Origin: Lentisphaeria bacterium
GTDB lineage: Bacteria > Verrucomicrobiota > Lentisphaeria > JABSQK01 > CAJWLW01
Reading direction: 5' to 3'
NCBI GenBank assembly: GCA_963580095.1
Contig: CAUZJQ010000003.1
Span: 1 to 49,699, forward strand
DNA: 49,699 nucleotides
Shown one piece after another: positions 17,893 to 45,057 of the stretch. Positions within the stretch are counted from its first letter, which is position 1, and each line of letters begins with the position of its first letter. Both the position numbers and the translations under genes were made by a program. Below the pieces are notes generated by a model. It was not told the origin of the DNA and searched no databases. It saw only the letters and a program-made list of their open reading frames with translations.

Positions 17893-19500
17893 ATGGAACT
17901 TTATACGATGGCGAGATCGCATGCACTTGCAGACGGGGACAGCCCTGCGGCTGCCTGGCAATTGAATGAAAGCGGTATTGCGGTATGGCCGGTCGGAGCT
18001 TTTGAGCAACACGGTCCGCACTTGCCGGTGAATACGGATGGTCTACTGGCGCAATATTTTGGCGAATTCGTCGCTGCCGGGCTGGGTGCTTGCCTGCTGC
18101 CGCTGCAGGCCGTCGGCACCAGCTTGGAACACACCGGGTTTCGCGGATCTTTCAGCCTGACCCCGGAGTTGCTGATGCAGTTCGTCCGCAATTGGGCGGA
18201 TGAGTTGGAAGCCCAGAATTTTCACACCTGCATCGTCGTCAACTTTCACGGCGGCAACTTTTCATTGGCTCCGGCGATCCGCGATATCAATCGCAAAGAC
18301 CGGCGCATCAAGTTTCTCCTGGTCAATTCCTGGGAGTTGATTTCTCCTGCCACCGAAGAGGTCCACGGCGGCGAGTTCGAAACCAGCCTGATGCTCCACC
18401 TCTTTCCGTCGCTGGTGAAGAAAAACGCTGTCGACGAGGATCCGTGCAAGGCGGAACCGCCGTTCGATAAAAGCGACCTGAACACGTTCGGGTTCGGCCG
18501 GATGAGTTGCTCGGGAGTGTGGGGATACCCGACGAAAGCCAGTGCCGCAAAGGGCAGAAAGTGGCTGGCGGGGATGAAGGCGAGCATGCTGCTGCATATC
18601 AACAAGCAACTCGACCGCCTGTCACAGGATCGGCGCTATGGCGGCCCGGGACCTGTTGCTTTGCGGCCGATGACCGAAGCGGACATTCCCCTTGGCATGC
18701 GCCTGAAGGGCCTGGCTCACTGGAACCAGCTCGAGGATGACTGGCGGATGCTGCTGGCTGCATCCGGTGGCGGAAACTTCGTCGCGCTCCACAATGGCCT
18801 TGCGGCCGGCACGGTTACGACGGTGACCTATCAGGATCACTTTTCATGGATCGGCATGGTGCTTGTCGATCCGCCCAGCCGCCGGTGCGGTGTGGGTAAG
18901 GCGCTGTTGACGGCTGCGGTCGATTACGCCGAGGCGTTCGGGCCGGTTCGGCTCGACGCAACGCCGGCCGGCGAAAAGCTCTACGATGCACTGGGGTTTC
19001 GGGAGGAGTCTCGACTGGCCCGCTACGAGTGCCGGAGTTTCGCGGAAGTCCCGCCGTCTGTGGCGGTGAGAATCAAGCCGATCACTGCGAGATTGATCAA
19101 TGCCGTAGCGACCTATGACGCGCAAATATTCGGGGCCGAGCGGAAGTCCGTTCTGAAATCCCTGCAGTCGATGGCACCGGAGCTTGGATACGTGGCGATG
19201 GACGGCAAGGCGATCATCGGGTTCTGCCTGGGCAGGGGAGGGGATGAGTTTACGCAAATCGGTCCGGTGGTAGCCGATTCGCCGGCCACTGCCGCGGCGC
19301 TGCTCTATCGAGCGCTCGCACAATGCCGGGGGCAGGATGTGATTGTCGATAGCCTCGACCGGCAGGCGGCGTTCAATGCGGTTTTAGCGGAACTCGGCTT
19401 TCAGGTGCAGCGCCCGTTCATTCGCATGTGTAAGGGCAAGCTGAAGTGCCCGGGTGTGCCGAAGATGCAGTTCGCGATCGCGGGTCCCGAGGTGGGGTAG
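17893..19500 (+). CDS. Creatininase/MftE-family amidohydrolase fused to a GNAT (YitH-like) acetyltransferase
   Basis: The N-half has EQHGPHLPVNTD, NFHGGN and HGGEFETS. The C-half has WNQLEDDW, WIGMVLVDPPSRRCGVGKALL, LDATPAGEKLYDALGF and QIGPVVA. Confidence 0.85.
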   Translation: MELYTMARSHALADGDSPAAAWQLNESGIAVWPVGAFEQHGPHLPVNTDGLLAQYFGEFVAAGLGACLLPLQAVGTSLEHTGFRGSFSLTPELLMQFVRNWADELEAQNFHTCIVVNFHGGNFSLAPAIRDINRKDRRIKFLLVNSWELISPATEEVHGGEFETSLMLHLFPSLVKKNAVDEDPCKAEPPFDKSDLNTFGFGRMSCSGVWGYPTKASAAKGRKWLAGMKASMLLHINKQLDRLSQDRRYGGPGPVALRPMTEADIPLGMRLKGLAHWNQLEDDWRMLLAASGGGNFVALHNGLAAGTVTTVTYQDHFSWIGMVLVDPPSRRCGVGKALLTAAVDYAEAFGPVRLDATPAGEKLYDALGFREESRLARYECRSFAEVPPSVAVRIKPITARLINAVATYDAQIFGAERKSVLKSLQSMAPELGYVAMDGKAIIGFCLGRGGDEFTQIGPVVADSPATAAALLYRALAQCRGQDVIVDSLDRQAAFNAVLAELGFQVQRPFIRMCKGKLKCPGVPKMQFAIAGPEVG

Positions 19501-19518: not shown

Positions 19519-22500
19519 TTACTGTTGTTGCAGGCGTCCGCGCAGGTGTTCGGCCAACTGGACATTTCCCTCTGCGGTCGCCAGTTCGATTGCCTTCTGG
19601 TACTGGGCAATCCCGTCGTTCGGCATATTCTGGATGAAGAAGGCGTCGCCCAGATTTATCCGGGTATGGGTGCTGTTCGGTCGCAGCCCGATCGATTTTT
19701 TCAGGTGAACGATCGCGGTAGGATCACGTTTCTGGTTGAGCAAGGCCCCGAGAAGGCGCAGCCATTCGGGGTTCTCGGGTGAGAGCCGCACCGCTTCGCG
19801 AAAATGCTGGAGGGCCCGATCGAGCTGTTGCAGATAGACCAATGAATTGCCTAGCAGGGCGTGTGCGTGGGACGACTGGGGATTGATCCGAAGCGCCTCG
19901 TTGCATTGCTGTGCCGTCTGGGCAAATTGTTCGGAACGGACCAGAGCCTCCGCCAGTTCAATGCGCCACTCGTAGACGTCCGGTGCGAGCTCGACGGCTT
20001 TTCTCAGTGCCGTCGCGGCCTCCTCGTTCTTTTTCTGATACCGCAGAATAGTGGCGAGCTGTCCGTAGACACCCGCCCCGCCCCGCTGATGCTCGGCTGC
20101 ATCGCGGAGATAGAGAGCGCCATTGTCGAGAGTCCGTTGCCTATTCTCGGCAACCTCCGATCGCAGAAGGAAAAGCTGTGCCAGGTGCTCCATGCTCATA
20201 TGCTGCGGTGACTCGAGCCAGTGTGCTTCGAACGGGACGGACAGCGTTCGGCGCTGCCGTACGTCGGCGTCGAGCAGTTTGGCATCCTCGAGCAACGTGT
20301 CGACATCGACTGTTCCGCGATAAACCGCCATGATCCGCCCTTTGTCATCGATCAGGAAGCTGGTCGGCACTGCTAGTGGCACGACGCGCGCGAAGATATG
20401 GTCGTTGACTGTCTGCAGTCCGTCTATCGACGCGCTATCGATCAGACCCGCCTCGAAGGGGAACTGCAGCTTGTCGAGCAATCGCCAGACATCCGCCGTC
20501 TCGGTCTGCTTTCTTTCATCGACGCTGTCGACGCTCAGGGCGATGATGTTCAGCCCGGCATTTTTGAGCTGCTGCTGGTCCCGGGTCCACTGCATCAATT
20601 CGCGGTGGCAGGGCGCGCACCAACTGGCCCAGAGGTTGACCAGCGTCGGCCCCTTATTGTCCAGGTTCAGTAATCGTTGCGTACCTTGTCGATCCCGGTA
20701 GCTGATATGGGGCAGCAGCGGTCCGGATGCCAGAAACACACGCCCCGCGCTGGTCGCCGGCTTGCCGGCAAGGATCGTGGGCGTAAGGGGCCCCCTCCCG
20801 GGCGGGCGCGTCCACCGACGGGCTTCGCCGGTGCCCTGAGTGACATGGTACTGACGGTCGGCCTGCAGACCGGTGAACATCTCGGGTTCGCCGCCGGGCC
20901 AGTGGACAGTCACCTTCTCTATCGAGGTGCTGCTGCCCAGCCCGAAGTGCAGCCACTTGCTGGATTGGGCGAGAAATCCCTCTCCCGCGCGGAGGGTCCG
21001 GATCAAAGGTTTCGCCTCATCGCCACCCAAGTGGACCTTGACCCGGGCGCCGATGGCGTCCCGATTACACGTCTTGCCTTCCAGGCGAATCGCCAGGAAG
21101 TGGTTGCCCGTAGGCACGTCGTTGCGCATGTATCGGAGCTGCGGCGCCGTGCGATTGCGCAGCCAGAAATCGAGGTCCCCGTCGTGATCCCAGTCGACGA
21201 AGGCGGCGCCACGGCCGTCGTCTGAGAAGTCGAGGCCGCTGATCGGGGAGATGTCGGCGAATCGCCCATCCTGCATATTGAGGAAGACACAGTGCCGCTC
21301 GTAGCCACTCATCGAGCGCCCCTCCTCCTGCATGCGCACAACCTCGAAGTTGGCCGCCCTGTAGGCCTCCTGCTCTCCCGCACGACTTGGTATTTGCGAC
21401 ACGACCTGCCGCCAAAAAAAACTTCACAAATCCTTCGTGTCGGGAGCGGACAGGTTGCCGTTGGTCACCAGGATGTCGTCCCAGCCGTTGTTGTTGAGGT
21501 CGCAGAATAGAGAGGACCATGCCCACCGCCCCATCGTCACCCCCGCATCGACACTGACGTCGGTAAAGGTGCTGTCGCCGTTGTTGGCAAAAAGGGTGTT
21601 GCCGCGCGCCAGGCGTTGGAAGGATTTGCGGGCGAAAGGGGAGAGGTCGCGTGTGAATTGATCCTGTGTAACGATCCTGTTGCCGGCGTTTGAGTACATG
21701 TTGCTGACGTAAACGTCCATCAGGCCGTCGCGGTTGTAGTCGCCCCATGTAACAGACATGCCGGAGGCGATATCCTCGACATCCGCCGTCGCGGCGACAT
21801 CGACAAATGTGCCGCCGTCGTTGCGATACAGGCAGTTGCGCCCGAAATCGTTGGCCAGATAGAGGTCTTGATCGCCGTCATTGTCATAATCCTCCCAGGC
21901 AGCGGAGAAGGTGAAACGACTGTTGTTGGCATCCAGCCCGGTCTCGACAGTGACGTCGGTGAATTCGAAGTCGCCGTCGTTGCGCAGCAGGAAGTTTCTG
22001 GCGCCGTTATTGGCGTCGTAATAAGGAATCGGCAGTGCGGCGCGATCCGATTCGGCGGCGTTGCGGTTATAGCGGCCGACAAAAAGATCGAGGTCGCCGT
22101 CCTCGTCGTAGTCGGCGGCGCAAAGGGCGAAGCCCATCCCGGCGCTGGTGACGTGCGAAGCCTGCTCGAAATGTCCCGTGCCGTCATTCTCGAGGATAAC
22201 CACCCCGGCGCGCGTGCCGATCGCCAGGTCCTGGTCGCCGTCGTTGTCGAGGTCGACTAACAGAGCGGAGACGGTTGTATCGGCGAAATTGACACCTGAT
22301 TCGCTCGAGCGGTCGGTTGCGGTGGAATCCGGGTTCTGGATGAAGAGGCGATTGGGCAACCCGCCGGCCTCGCAGAGATACAGGTCGTCTAAGCCGTCGC
22401 CGTTCACGTCGCCGATTGCCAGGCCGGAGTAGCCGGCAATATGCTGGCCATGGGCCCGTTCGAGCCTGCCGATCCAATGGAACGTGCCGTGCATCAGCTG

Positions 22501-23277
22501 TTCCCGGAAAAAATCATTACCGCCGATCGCCGCCTCGGTACAGTCTGCAAACAGCGGCGTTTCGGGAGTTCGCAGAATCGTCTCCCGGTAATCGACCAGG
22601 CCGATGGTGTGCAGACGCGGTGGGTTACTGGTCTGCCAGACGCTTTCCCAGATGGATGAAACCGCCGAACCCCGGGCTCGGATCGACACATGCTGCCGCG
22701 TGGTGATCCGGTCAGGTTCCTGCTCGACCCGGAAGATCTTGATATCGACTTGCAGTTCCCCGCCCCCAGCGAATGGCTCTCGAAGCCGGCCAAGGGCTTC
22801 GGCAAGGCCGTCGACCCCATGATAGGGACCGAGGCCCTTAGCAGGATCCTGCGGATTCTCGGCGGCAAGAACCGTCAGGACCTCGTCGGCATAGCGTTCC
22901 TGCAGATTTGCGGGCCGAAGGCCGCTGCAGGAAAACTTGTTTGTCACCAGGGGCGTGAGCCGGGCCGTGTCGATGGGATTGGTCTGCTCGAGCAGACTGC
23001 CCAGTATCTTTAATTGGGCTTTTGCCGCCTTGCTAAACACCTCCGTGTGCCAGCCGTCGTCGGCGGGGTCGTCGGTGAAGAGCGAGTCGATCGGACGGCC
23101 GTCGATGGTGGCGGTGATCGTCTCGGGTTCGCTCGAGACTGTCGCCGTCACGGCTGTGGGGCTTGCGGCAGGTTCCGGATCCCGACAGCCATGGCGTAGG
23201 CTGAAAAACAGGCAGAACAGCATGATGATTGAGACTGTAATCCAGCAGCGATGTGCTCTGACCTGACAGATGATCAA
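19519..23277 (-). CDS. FG-GAP/CRTAC1 + ASPIC-UnbV + TlpA-like redoxin + TPR protein with one in-frame UGA (21424-21426); candidate selenoprotein
   Basis: Track ORFs 21424..23277 and 19519..21402 are in the same frame and join as ...DTKDL-UGA-SFFWRQVVSQIP.... D-x-D/N-x-DGDxD repeats occur on both sides of the UGA. Downstream come NRDAIGARV...LHFGLG (UnbV), WASWCAPC and TPR helices. Confidence 0.75.
21385..21423 (-). promoter_or_regulatory. Putative bacterial SECIS element
   Basis: The mRNA after UGA is AGUUUUUUUUGGCGGCAGGUCGUGUCGCAAAUACCAAGU. GCGGCA pairs with UGUCGC around a GGUCG loop, and UUG/CAA-type pairing can extend the lower stem. Confidence 0.6.
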
Positions 23278-42555: not shown

Positions 42556-45057
42556 ATGTTGACAGTAAACGTATATGTGGGAATCCGCTCGATCGCTTTA
42601 CTTAAAATCGCCGTCGTTGCAGGGGGCCTGTTGTTGCCGGGGTTCGCACAGGCTGGTGCGTTTGAGGATAAGACAAAGTCGTTCACCGGCGTGGATGACA
42701 TCGGCGATACCAAGGCGGCTTTCGGCGATTTTAACAATGACGGACACGTCGATCTGATTACATACGACATGCTCTTTGTGAACCTCGAAGGCAAGGCCTA
42801 CAAGAAAATCGGCAGCGGCGCCGGCTTGGTTATGTGGGGTGACTTAAACAACGACGGCCACCTCGATCAGGTACGGGCCAATGGCAGCGGCGTCGTGATG
42901 CTCGGTGATGGCGAGGGCGGTTACACGCGCGGCTTGGGTCCGCCCGGGCCGTTCGGCGGAGAATGTAATGCCGCGAGCCTCGGCGACATCGACAACGACG
43001 GTCTGCTCGACATTTATTACTGCGCCGGTGTCGGCAATAAGGACACCTTATGGCGGCAGAATCCGAATCACGAAAATAAATGGGAGCTTGTCCTGGAGGC
43101 GGGCGGCGCCTACGCCCGCAGCGTCGTCGGCTGTGATTTTGACGAAGATAACGACATCGACTTCTACGTGTCCAACTACTGGCTGGCTGCCAATTCCCTG
43201 TGGGTCAGCGACGGCAAAGGTGGGGCAACAAACCAGGCTGGCCCCTTTGGTGCAACCGGCGGCAGCGCCCACTCGGTCGGTGCCTGCTGGGGCGATGTCG
43301 ACAACGACGGCTACTTCGATATTTTCGCCGGAAACTTCGCGCACCCCGGCCAGCCGCAGTCGCGTTTCCTGCACAATCTCGGTCCCGAGAAAGGGTATAA
43401 ATTCGCGGACAAAGGCCAGTGCGGCGTGGCCTTCCAGGAATCCTACGCCTCACCGACGCTCGGAGACTATGACAACGACGGCGACCTCGACCTGTTCTTT
43501 ACGACGGTTTACGGGCATAACGCGGCGCGGCTCTATCGGAATAACGGTGATTGGACGTTCACCGATGTCACGGGCGTTGAAGGGATTCCGCGCATCGGCT
43601 CAACATACCAGGCCGCCTGGGGCGATGTCGACAGTGACGGGGACCTGGACCTGGTGACGGATGGTAAGCTCTTCATGAACAAGGGGAACGACAACCACTG
43701 GCTGAAGATCCGCTTGGAGGGCAACGGCATGACCGTCAACAGATCCGCGATCGGCGCCAGAGTCCACATCAAGCTCGGCGACAAGATTCTCTCCCGCCAA
43801 GTTGAGGGCGGCGGGGTGGGGCAAGGCAATCAGAATGATCCCACCCTCCACTTCGGCCTCGGTGCGCATGGAGGCAAGGTGCAGTACGAGGTCGTTTGGA
43901 CCGACGGCACGAAACAGATCGGCGAAAGCGAGGTCGACAAAATGATCCGTGTCGCGCAGTCCGGCAGCGGCGAGGTGGTGATTGCAAACCTGCGTACCAG
44001 TCTGGGCCGCGCCCGCGACGAGACCCGATTGTTGCGCACCGAGCTCGGCGCATTGCGCGAGTCCGTGCAGTCCCTGTCCGATGCGCAGAAGGTGCGGGAG
44101 AACGATCTGGTGGATGTCAGGAAGGCGGTTGCGGCATCCCTGGCGGAGCAGACGAAGGGACAGCAGAGCGCTGCAGTCGACCAACTGGCGGCTATCAAAA
44201 AGGAGATCGCCGCATCCCTGGCGGAGCAGGCGAAGAGGCAGAGCGCTGCAGGCGAACAGCTGGCGGCTGTCAAGAAGGAGATCGAGGCATCCCTGGCGCA
44301 GCACACAAAGAACCAGAGCGCTGCACGCGACCAGGTGAATGGCCGTATGGACGAGATCGAAGCGTTTTTGGTCAAGCCTTGGAAGACGTTTCCCGGGATC
44401 CTGGAGGATAGGCTCGTGGAAGGGTACACGCTCCCCTGGGAAGGCGACGCGCATCACCCCCTGACTGCACACGCAGGCAACATTTTTACGCTCGAAAAGG
44501 GGCGCGGAATCCGCCTGTCGGGAGGGGCGTATCTCTCCACCGGTGAAGCATGCACCGCACTCAGTACCGCACTCTCTAAAGCGGGAGACCTCACCCTGGA
44601 AGTCGTGATGCGACCAGCGAATCTCACCCAGGCCGGTCCGGCGCGAATTGTCTCGATCTCCGAGGGGGCAGGCACTCGCAACCTCACGCTGGGCCAGGCA
44701 GAGGACCGTTTTGTGGTCCGCCTTCGGACCACCGAGACGAGCATCAACGGGACCAATCCCGCGCTCCATACACAGGCGGGTGTGCTGACTGGCGAGCGGC
44801 AGCATCTCGTTTTCGTTCGGAAAGCAGAGACGCACACGCTCTATGTCGACGGGACCCCCGTCACGTCACTCGCCGTGCCCGGTGATCTGAGCACGTGGGA
44901 CCACACCATGCCGCTCCTGGTGGGCAACGAGACGGGAGGCGATCGGACCTGGGAGGGAGAGGTCTATGGCGTCACTTTCTTCTCGCGAGCCTTCACCGCC
45001 GAGGAGGTTAGACAAGCAGCGCATGCGCCAGTTGAAGCGCGAGTTAGCACCGAATAG
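42556..45057 (+). CDS. Secreted FG-GAP/CRTAC1 + ASPIC-UnbV + coiled-coil repeat + LamG-like protein
   Basis: Multiple GDxxNDGxxD repeats, NHWLKIRLEG...NRSAIGARV...LHFGLG, tandem ASLAEQ repeats, and a C-terminal PARIVSIS...LTLGQ...LYVDG...LLVGNE...W.G domain. Confidence 0.87.
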   Translation: MLTVNVYVGIRSIALLKIAVVAGGLLLPGFAQAGAFEDKTKSFTGVDDIGDTKAAFGDFNNDGHVDLITYDMLFVNLEGKAYKKIGSGAGLVMWGDLNNDGHLDQVRANGSGVVMLGDGEGGYTRGLGPPGPFGGECNAASLGDIDNDGLLDIYYCAGVGNKDTLWRQNPNHENKWELVLEAGGAYARSVVGCDFDEDNDIDFYVSNYWLAANSLWVSDGKGGATNQAGPFGATGGSAHSVGACWGDVDNDGYFDIFAGNFAHPGQPQSRFLHNLGPEKGYKFADKGQCGVAFQESYASPTLGDYDNDGDLDLFFTTVYGHNAARLYRNNGDWTFTDVTGVEGIPRIGSTYQAAWGDVDSDGDLDLVTDGKLFMNKGNDNHWLKIRLEGNGMTVNRSAIGARVHIKLGDKILSRQVEGGGVGQGNQNDPTLHFGLGAHGGKVQYEVVWTDGTKQIGESEVDKMIRVAQSGSGEVVIANLRTSLGRARDETRLLRTELGALRESVQSLSDAQKVRENDLVDVRKAVAASLAEQTKGQQSAAVDQLAAIKKEIAASLAEQAKRQSAAGEQLAAVKKEIEASLAQHTKNQSAARDQVNGRMDEIEAFLVKPWKTFPGILEDRLVEGYTLPWEGDAHHPLTAHAGNIFTLEKGRGIRLSGGAYLSTGEACTALSTALSKAGDLTLEVVMRPANLTQAGPARIVSISEGAGTRNLTLGQAEDRFVVRLRTTETSINGTNPALHTQAGVLTGERQHLVFVRKAETHTLYVDGTPVTSLAVPGDLSTWDHTMPLLVGNETGGDRTWEGEVYGVTFFSRAFTAEEVRQAAHAPVEARVSTE
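44113..44336 (+). repeat. Three intragenic ~66-69 bp tandem repeats (22-23 aa coiled-coil units)
   Basis: GCATCCCTGGCG and CAGAGCGCTGCA each recur three times, encoding KKEIAASLAEQxKxQSAAxxQ. Confidence 0.8.

Follow-up and report, generated by a model that had tools for sequence, protein, structure and literature searches.

When bacteria decode UGA as selenocysteine (Sec), SelB contacts the apical loop of a hairpin known as the Sec insertion sequence (SECIS). In the fdhF gene of E. coli K-12 the TGA is codon 140, the heptamer GCAGGUC begins 15 nucleotides (nt) after it, and the GGUC of the loop occupies nt 22-25. Here we describe a gene on the minus strand of a contig from a Lentisphaeria bacterium (GenBank assembly GCA_963580095.1, contig CAUZJQ010000003.1, positions 1 to 49,699; this whole stretch of 49,699 nt is called the window), whose codon 618, a UGA, is very probably read as Sec. 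In this gene GCAGGUC begins 14 nt after the UGA and the GGUC loop lies at nt 21-24, so that the spacing differs from that of fdhF by a single nucleotide. An earlier note, drawn up from the letters of the window alone, had remarked on the almost equal distance, and the values of 15 nt and 14 nt agree with it. The two encoded proteins are unrelated, and the window hairpin is a simple stem of 6-7 base pairs in which no extended lower helix is seen, unlike the predicted fdhF fold; binding by SelB is putative.

Several described proteins share parts of their make-up with the window protein. The middle of the window protein resembles CRTAC1 and its ASPIC/UnbV relatives, in that an UnbV_ASPIC domain comes after a Ca-type FG-GAP/VCBS propeller (with 9etn as target, the Foldseek TM-score is 0.72). 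CRTAC1 has no Sec, however, and the window protein has in addition an N-terminal domain, a thioredoxin domain and TPRs. A paralogue starting at 42556 in the window likewise has no Sec and is without the helical insertion that carries it here. The thioredoxin-fold domain is akin to those of TlpA, ResA and CcmG, with W-C-x-x-C at a helix N-terminus, AhpC-TSA and Redoxin profiles above their cut-offs and a structural match to ResA (2f9s_A). Unlike in those proteins, it is fused behind a propeller, and the NCBIfam equivalog models score far below their cut-offs (TlpA 48.8 vs 230; ResA 45.1 vs 170). Exported thioredoxin-fold proteins with Sec are represented by the UGC-containing TlpA family and the ResA-like WAxxUGC proteins (NF041054), in which Sec sits inside the thioredoxin motif; the window protein has a plain CxxC as its thioredoxin motif, with Sec in a different domain, 269 residues upstream. 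NF041054 gives a weak Trx-TPR profile match to the window protein (39.8 vs a cut-off of 300), which is therefore not a member, and no NCBIfam selenoprotein model reaches its cut-off. Other relatives have a sense codon in place of the UGA. These homologues, named 'TPR repeat protein/peroxiredoxin' or 'VCBS repeat-containing protein' and found for example in Granulicella and Terriglobia, share length, domain order and the motif DL-x-SFFWRQVV, with 40-57% identity around the site, but their thioredoxin motif is short of one or both Cys in 87 of 102 cases.

Table 1 of a 2026 review (PMC13188914) catalogues 119 prokaryotic selenoprotein families and subfamilies and has no FG-GAP, VCBS, UnbV, ASPIC or CRTAC1 entry. 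None of these families matches at the Sec site, in keeping with the proposal of the earlier note that the protein stands outside the classical selenoprotein families. FG-GAP, ASPIC and propeller are unmentioned in PMC13188914, PMC12013277, PMC13326102, PMC2398784 and PMC9312934, among which, beside the 2026 review, are the papers on deep-Sep, BSepDB and GOS and a review of 2022, although supplements (e.g. Table S2 of PMC12013277) and BSepDB could list such genes. CRTAC1 and VCBS are unmentioned in PMC13188914, PMC12013277 and PMC13326102, as is integrin in PMC2398784 and PMC9312934. Our literature searches linking selenoprotein or selenocysteine with FG-GAP, VCBS, ASPIC/UnbV or CRTAC1 found no relevant paper. 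Judged from sequence, the recoding route appears to be the ordinary bacterial one, while the fold context appears unprecedented relative to the catalogue.

The gene and the elements at its recoding site are as follows, in window coordinates:

23277..19519, minus strand: whole candidate selenoprotein gene, 1252 codons, from TTG 23277 to TAA 19521..19519
21426..21424, minus strand: in-frame UGA, codon 618 counted from TTG 23277, in the context ...DTKDL-UGA-SFFWRQVV, found in the same column in 79 distinct homologues
21396..21412, minus strand: SECIS-like hairpin GCGGCA-GGUCG-UGUCGC with a GGUC apical loop, 11 nt after the UGA

Two minus-strand open reading frames (ORFs), 21424..23277 (617 residues) and 19519..21402 (627 residues), lie in the same frame with only this TGA between them, and no further stop or frameshift occurs across the 1252 codons. 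The earlier note had described and placed the gene correctly, as one frame split solely by a UGA at codon 618, while leaving its strand unnamed; the ORF listing and the translation both support the description. The true start is uncertain: GTG 23235 and ATG 23223 are alternatives to TTG 23277, and one orthologue (L007) has ATG where the window gene has the alternative-start GTG.

The TGA is conserved far beyond this assembly. A six-frame search of 41 related genomes, four of which represent the genus, recovered the gene in all four congeneric genomes, as four orthologues (90-100% identity) and seven paralogues (~50-58%), each with one TGA and all eleven TGAs sharing one alignment column. A scan of GenBank species-representative genomes yielded 80 loci, 78 of them covering the codon-618 column. 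TGA occupies that column in 27 of the 78, including all but one of the loci with at least 43% identity, and these come from metagenome-assembled genomes titled Akkermansiaceae, Roseibacillus, Pirellulaceae, Planctomycetaceae, Phycisphaerae, Mariniblastus, Bythopirellula and others. TGC or TGT stands there in six loci, five distinct ones having the motif D-Y-C-T-T-[FY]-W-R-H, and GCC (Ala) in one close relative; the remaining loci, distant CRTAC1-like proteins, have other codons or gaps. Sampling of 151 Acidobacteriota genomes gave 24 matches, 19 of them with one TGA (18 of 23 when the unpublished G470 is set aside), and 201 Planctomycetota genomes gave 34 matches, 30 with one TGA. After removal of duplicates there are 79 distinct TGA forms in Verrucomicrobiota, Planctomycetota and Acidobacteriota, so that at the aligned codon, which the earlier note had proposed to tabulate, the TGA is conserved in these 79, with Cys in a sister clade. 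A search of 401 genomes of the window's own phylum with a 186-residue query (E <= 1e-12) matched its own genome alone, a result of sampling that is no evidence of absence. An Acidobacteriota/Planctomycetota clade with the motif KDT-U-SxFWR[QH]VVA and ~925-1140 residues has the propeller, UnbV and thioredoxin domains without the TPRs, which indicates that the conserved core is the Sec-bearing propeller plus the thioredoxin domain.

Several genomes hold more than one copy. The window's own genome has a second TGA paralogue on contig C176 (L016:345-1352, minus strand; ~51-54% identity in the compared segment), with the motif DL-U-SLFWRQVL and the hairpin GCGGCAG-GUC-CUGCCGC, the gene being cut by the contig end. 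The planctomycetotal genome G771 (7.9 Mb) has six TGA paralogues on C4 (including L166, L181, L185 and L188), G754 has four TGA copies, and G642 has three TGA copies beside two sense-codon copies.

The hairpin downstream of the UGA shows the marks of a conserved RNA structure. It is separated from the UGA by 11 unpaired nt, AGUUUUUUUUG, and its presence had been called from the window sequence, with GCAGGUC starting 14 nt downstream, just as we find it. We aligned 79 TGA-form sequences and compared covariation with 500 shuffles and with controls in which the 3' partner was slid by 1-3 columns. The six core stem pairs form in 90-99% of the sequences, and four pairs show changes on both sides: pair 27-37 occurs as GU (31), AU (19), CG (16), GC (6) and UA (4), pair 29-35 as AU (68) and GC (8), and pair 25-39 as CG (72) and UA (1), while an optional seventh pair occurs as CG (18), GC (4) and AU (2). 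Covariation scores 0.269 in this alignment, where shuffles give 0.120 +/- 0.010 and slid partners at most 0.098, and 36 cells are changed on both sides where 11.1 are expected; none of the 500 shuffles reaches either value. On its 5' side, pair 27-37 uses the third base of an Arg codon (CGG, CGA, CGC or CGU), where changes are synonymous. This base tracks the first base of a Ser, Pro, Ala or Thr codon ten nt further on, a pattern for which the protein sequence offers no easy explanation. Related sequences can beat shuffles without any structure, but such an artefact of kinship is unlikely here given the low slid controls and the number of pair types. The hairpin, for which a covariance analysis had been suggested, is thus conserved with compensatory changes. 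Its presence also goes with that of the TGA: over a 21-nt segment, TGA forms fold at -4.0 to -13.6 kcal/mol, whereas nine of 11 distinct sense-codon forms reach just 0 to -4.9 kcal/mol, the hairpin being absent or much weaker in these nine.

The genome also encodes the means to use such a signal. The genes selA and selD and a SelB winged-helix domain are clustered on one contig (C121), and a tRNA-Sec with anticodon tca lies on another (C250), so that all four components for which the earlier note had proposed a search are present. Within the cluster (C121:1515-6837) the open frame around the selD match is 723 residues long, more than is usual for SelD; a fusion could account for the excess, or just an open frame that extends upstream. 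Among the 41 relatives selA occurs in seven, including all four TGA-holding genomes, and was not found in three (G013, G014 and G022) that hold sense-codon homologues only; as the genomes are interrelated, this pattern is consistent with Sec but is no statistical test. Further afield, selA is present in the genome of the Ala form and in those of three more TGA loci, and it was not found in the one genome of the Cys clade that was searched. In one single-contig Acidobacteriota genome (G442:C1:1153659-1158285), selA lies ~0.7 kb downstream of a TGA-form gene (L150) on the same strand, which may be a selenoprotein-machinery neighbourhood. TGA is otherwise the commonest ordinary stop of the window's genome: of the 1502 open frames that have 400 codons or more, 843 end in it, and an M24 peptidase gene in the window ends in it as well. 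Recoding is therefore site-specific and not a change of code, as the earlier note had held. Among classical selenoproteins, the FdhA model matched only a non-Sec molybdopterin enzyme in this genome, below its cut-off, and none of its 11 AhpC-TSA matches has an internal stop.

Read through the UGA, the gene encodes a single multidomain protein with the following parts:

23100..23277, minus strand: N-terminal hydrophobic segment, an export signal, membrane anchor or lipoprotein-like sequence (...SLRHGC)
22432..23099, minus strand: N-terminal alpha+beta domain, residues ~60-282, of no Pfam family, with a conserved DDPxxDGWxTEV motif
21427..22431, minus strand: FG-GAP/VCBS propeller blades 1-6, with Ca-type motifs at residues 290, 342, 389, 463, 513 and 593
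21322..21423, minus strand: two-helix insertion opening with Sec, residues 619 to ~652, SFFWRQVVS..., the most conserved motif of the family
21169..21195, minus strand: seventh-blade Ca-type motif DWDHDGDLD, residues 695-703, encoded after the UGA; model strands 628-648
20848..21057, minus strand: UnbV_ASPIC domain, residues 741-810, assigned by Pfam; Foldseek match to murine CRTAC1 (9etn_A)
20326..20694, minus strand: TlpA/ResA-like thioredoxin-fold domain, residues 862-984; Foldseek matches 2f9s_A and 4nmu_A
20608..20622, minus strand: WCAPC redox motif, residues 886-890 (W886, C887, C890), at a helix N-terminus, conserved in 74 of 78 TGA forms
19558..20070, minus strand: C-terminal TPR superhelix, residues ~1070-1240

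Pfam finds FG-GAP repeats, UnbV_ASPIC (741-810), AhpC-TSA/Redoxin (862-991) and TPRs in the read-through protein, with PF13517, PF01839 and PF07593 all above their cut-offs. Ahead of the TGA there are six D-x-[DN]-x-[DN]-G-x-x-D motifs, and one more (695-703) lies beyond it as the seventh, which implies that the propeller runs on across the UGA, as had been proposed for its FG-GAP repeats. An AlphaFold model of read-through residues 61-1252, with C in place of U, has a mean predicted local distance difference test (pLDDT) score of 91.9 and a predicted TM-score (pTM) of 0.88. Its best PDB match by Foldseek is murine CRTAC1 (9etn_A, E 6.5e-24), with separate matches for the TPR superhelix and for ResA-type oxidoreductases. 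The model departs from the earlier note in one respect: U618 (model residue 558), which the note had assigned to a propeller loop, lies in the first turn of a helix (557-568) that opens a two-helix insertion separating blades 6 and 7. C887 is at the N-terminus of another helix (828-839), so that Sec and CxxC are both found at helix N-termini, a position typical of reactive Cys and Sec in thiol and selenol oxidoreductases. The protein is probably exported, judging by the hydrophobic N-terminal segments of the family: of 34 complete homologues, 27 have a hydrophobic stretch by a crude test, and several others have signal-like N-termini by eye, in some of which a lipoprotein-like Cys follows the hydrophobic residues.

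The paralogue in the window (42556-45057, plus strand) has 833 residues, FG-GAP and UnbV domains, no stop and a long unannotated C-terminal region. The earlier note had cited it as an uninterrupted example of the same architecture. It does carry FG-GAP followed by UnbV in one ORF, but it is without the ~60-residue segment that carries Sec, and the resulting alignment gap means that it says nothing on codon 618.

Whether a homologue has Sec is closely related to whether its thioredoxin motif is intact. CxxC follows Sec in all 34 forms of a first set, in all 18 Acidobacteriota forms and in 22 of 26 non-duplicate Planctomycetota forms, 74 of 78 in total. For comparison we examined 121 full-length database relatives that keep DL-x-SFFWRQVV, of which 120 are listed and 102 have the thioredoxin motif covered. 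CxxC is intact in 15 of the 102, including both Cys forms; one Cys is left in 55 and none in 32, and where position 618 is neither Sec nor Cys the motif survives in 13 of 100. On the sequence evidence, then, Sec or Cys at 618 and an intact CxxC appear to be kept or lost together, although these counts overstate the number of independent events as the sequences are related.

Three other explanations of the interrupted frame have to be weighed against Sec. In the first, the UGA is read through without selenium, a near-cognate tRNA inserting Trp, Cys or Arg with the aid of the hairpin, or a mixture of terminated and read-through products being made. Downstream hairpins can promote stop-codon read-through, and the aligned position tolerates many residues, so that a residue other than Sec could work there. 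This account leaves aside, however, that the hairpin has an fdhF-type GGUC apical loop at fdhF spacing and that the genome has the full Sec machinery. The TGA forms, moreover, retain the partner CxxC that the sense-codon forms have mostly lost, and a Cys-bearing sister clade exists, with no selA detected in its one searched genome. We regard read-through without selenium as very unlikely.

The second alternative takes the UGA as a true stop and the C-terminal half as a separate gene starting at GTG 21402, eight codons downstream. This is how gene callers annotate the family: 144 of the best 150 database representatives of the C-terminal ORF are short (<950 residues) and begin at or just after the UGA, and 21 of 40 N-termini compared start with [MV]-S-[QRH], corresponding to the GTG inside the hairpin, which is itself conserved. 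That GTG, however, lies in the 3' arm of the hairpin, without a Shine-Dalgarno-like site; the stretch upstream is T-rich and GC-rich and by eye shows nothing like AGGAGG, consistent with the earlier remark that a purine-rich ribosome-binding site is missing. In each of the 79 distinct TGA forms the two halves share one reading frame, and separation would part the seventh blade from the other six, whereas the sense-codon relatives are continuous single proteins of ~1250 residues. Two genes would also leave unexplained the covariation of the hairpin and the link with selA among the relatives. The seventh blade after the UGA, the confident model and the continuous relatives argue instead for one read-through protein, and we consider the existence of two separate genes highly improbable.

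The third alternative, a pseudogene or an assembly or sequencing error in which a sense codon was mutated or misread as TGA, could appeal to the fragmented assembly (545 contigs) and to a run of eight T after the TGA, but it is refuted by the same TGA in three congeneric genomes and 75 further distinct homologues, by the lack of any other stop or frameshift in 1252 codons and by independent seawater contigs that match base for base at the site, since an error shared by all public assemblies across platforms and phyla is not credible.

Those contigs come from a survey in which at least half of the sampled words of the stretch were found in 16 marine or seawater metagenome runs. Nine of the runs are flagged as possible sources of the assembly, and the other seven come from four studies. 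Contigs of runs not so flagged match the window across the site, with no difference listed at the TGA, which provides the confirmation of the bases for which the earlier note had looked to raw reads. The interval 21393-21433 (40 nt, from before the TGA to the end of the hairpin) reaches up to ten times the depth of its flanks in seawater contigs, and the extra contigs diverge on both sides; the interval is therefore the most conserved DNA among many family members in the samples. An 87-nt 'joint' of low depth in one DNA run probably belongs to another family member. Two RNA-library runs contain short contigs that match parts of the gene exactly or almost exactly, and one of these contigs (151 nt) ends 7 nt past the TGA; these contigs, with their small shares, show neither transcription nor bridging of the TGA.

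Several observations weigh against reading the codon as Sec. Cys stands at the Sec position in just two of the 120 full-length relatives, which is unusual for a catalytic Sec; the position is occupied by N (27), A (25), S (21), Q (16), G (10), L (9), E (3), C (2), D (2), Y (2), H (1) or a gap (2), and the two DL-C-SFFWRQVV records may bear U in their source. The Cys/TGA pairs that the earlier note had named as support are thus found with the sister clade, while most sense-codon relatives have N, A, S, Q, G or L and rarely Cys. Two Acidobacteriota forms, L143 (G507:C389) and L148 (G567:C114), carry a Glu codon (GAG) where Sec would stand and are without CxxC, yet keep a fairly or fully stable hairpin (-7.2 and -11.6 kcal/mol for the two Glu forms), that of L143 being as stable as in TGA forms; these hairpins may be relics or may have arisen by chance in GC-rich sequence. 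The hairpin overlaps the WRQVV codons, and as this peptide is kept in sense-codon relatives too, the nucleotide conservation is partly at the protein level. An Rfam search of 21250-21500 at a permissive E-value gave no SECIS match, just a chance match to a long non-coding RNA. Four TGA forms are without an intact CxxC: L173 has a degenerate motif, L182 has one Cys, and L177 and L179 are without the thioredoxin domain altogether. One TGA holder among the Acidobacteriota (G502, a 3.0-Mb assembly) has no selA that we could find, and co-occurrence with selA is uninformative in that phylum, where 121 of 151 genomes have the gene.

Against these points stand the conserved TGA, the covarying hairpin at fdhF spacing, the link between hairpin and TGA, the Sec machinery and the unchanged code, and we therefore hold to the reading of codon 618 as Sec with high confidence. 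The genes almost certainly form a selenoprotein family, widespread in three phyla, with dozens of carriers among marine and soil bacteria, and present as several paralogues in some genomes, whose members are cut into halves by annotation.

We propose a model in which SelB with Sec-tRNA would bind the SECIS hairpin just downstream of UGA 618, so that Sec is inserted and one exported protein of ~1250 residues is made, with a seven-bladed CRTAC1-like propeller, an UnbV/ASPIC domain, a WCAPC thioredoxin domain and TPRs. The selenolate would act as the reactive centre in an extracytoplasmic redox site, to be recycled via a selenenylsulfide by the CxxC domain of the same chain. That domain could in turn be reduced by a DsbD/CcdA-type membrane protein, and one (DsbD_TM) is encoded in the genome; the propeller and the TPRs may hold a substrate. 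The earlier note had suggested that WCAPC re-reduces the Sec. The CxxC domain is present and co-occurs with Sec, and it is this co-occurrence, and not structure or experiment, that speaks for such a relay, to which we would give even chances. The near-exclusive pairing of Sec with an intact CxxC would nevertheless make it a testable model of selenolate recycling outside the cytoplasm.

If codon 618 encodes Sec, the catalogue has no precedent either for the fold in which Sec is used, a CRTAC1-like beta-propeller, or for its setting in a large exported protein of several domains. Thousands of database entries would be half-genes to be joined, selenoproteome counts would be too low for three abundant environmental phyla, and bacterial CRTAC1-like proteins would have a first chemical clue. 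A passage of the deep-Sep paper (PMC12013277) describes present selenoprotein-finding methods as leaning on Sec/Cys pairs. It is plausible that searches of this kind missed the family because its Cys forms are scarce and its non-Sec relatives have N, A, S, Q, G or L, and the case would thus expose a blind spot in screens that require such pairs. More tentatively, and with somewhat less than even confidence, we suggest that the window gene is the founding example of a large beta-propeller selenoenzyme family outside the cytoplasm, in which Sec and a TlpA-like domain make a self-contained periplasmic redox catalyst, and which, at up to six paralogues per genome, might be among the main uses of selenium in marine Planctomycetota/Verrucomicrobiota and in Acidobacteriota.

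A crude scan of the genome for a TGA followed by a hairpin returned 123 candidates, the longest two being the window gene and its C176 paralogue; most of the others translate to junk-like sequence. One further candidate on contig C155 (1-3318, plus strand) has an in-frame TGA at 1162, with 387 codons before it and 718 after it, a hairpin CAACG-AGUC-CGUUG and the context ...FQRAA-U-FCIDNE. Around the window gene lie a creatininase-GNAT fusion, an SDR gene, the M24 peptidase gene and ORFs without a Pfam family. None of these neighbours is conserved beside homologues outside the genus, so that the neighbourhood is uninformative on the substrate. The fusion is the convergent neighbour (17893-19500, plus strand), a protein of 535 residues in which a creatininase-family domain is joined to GNAT acetyltransferase domains.

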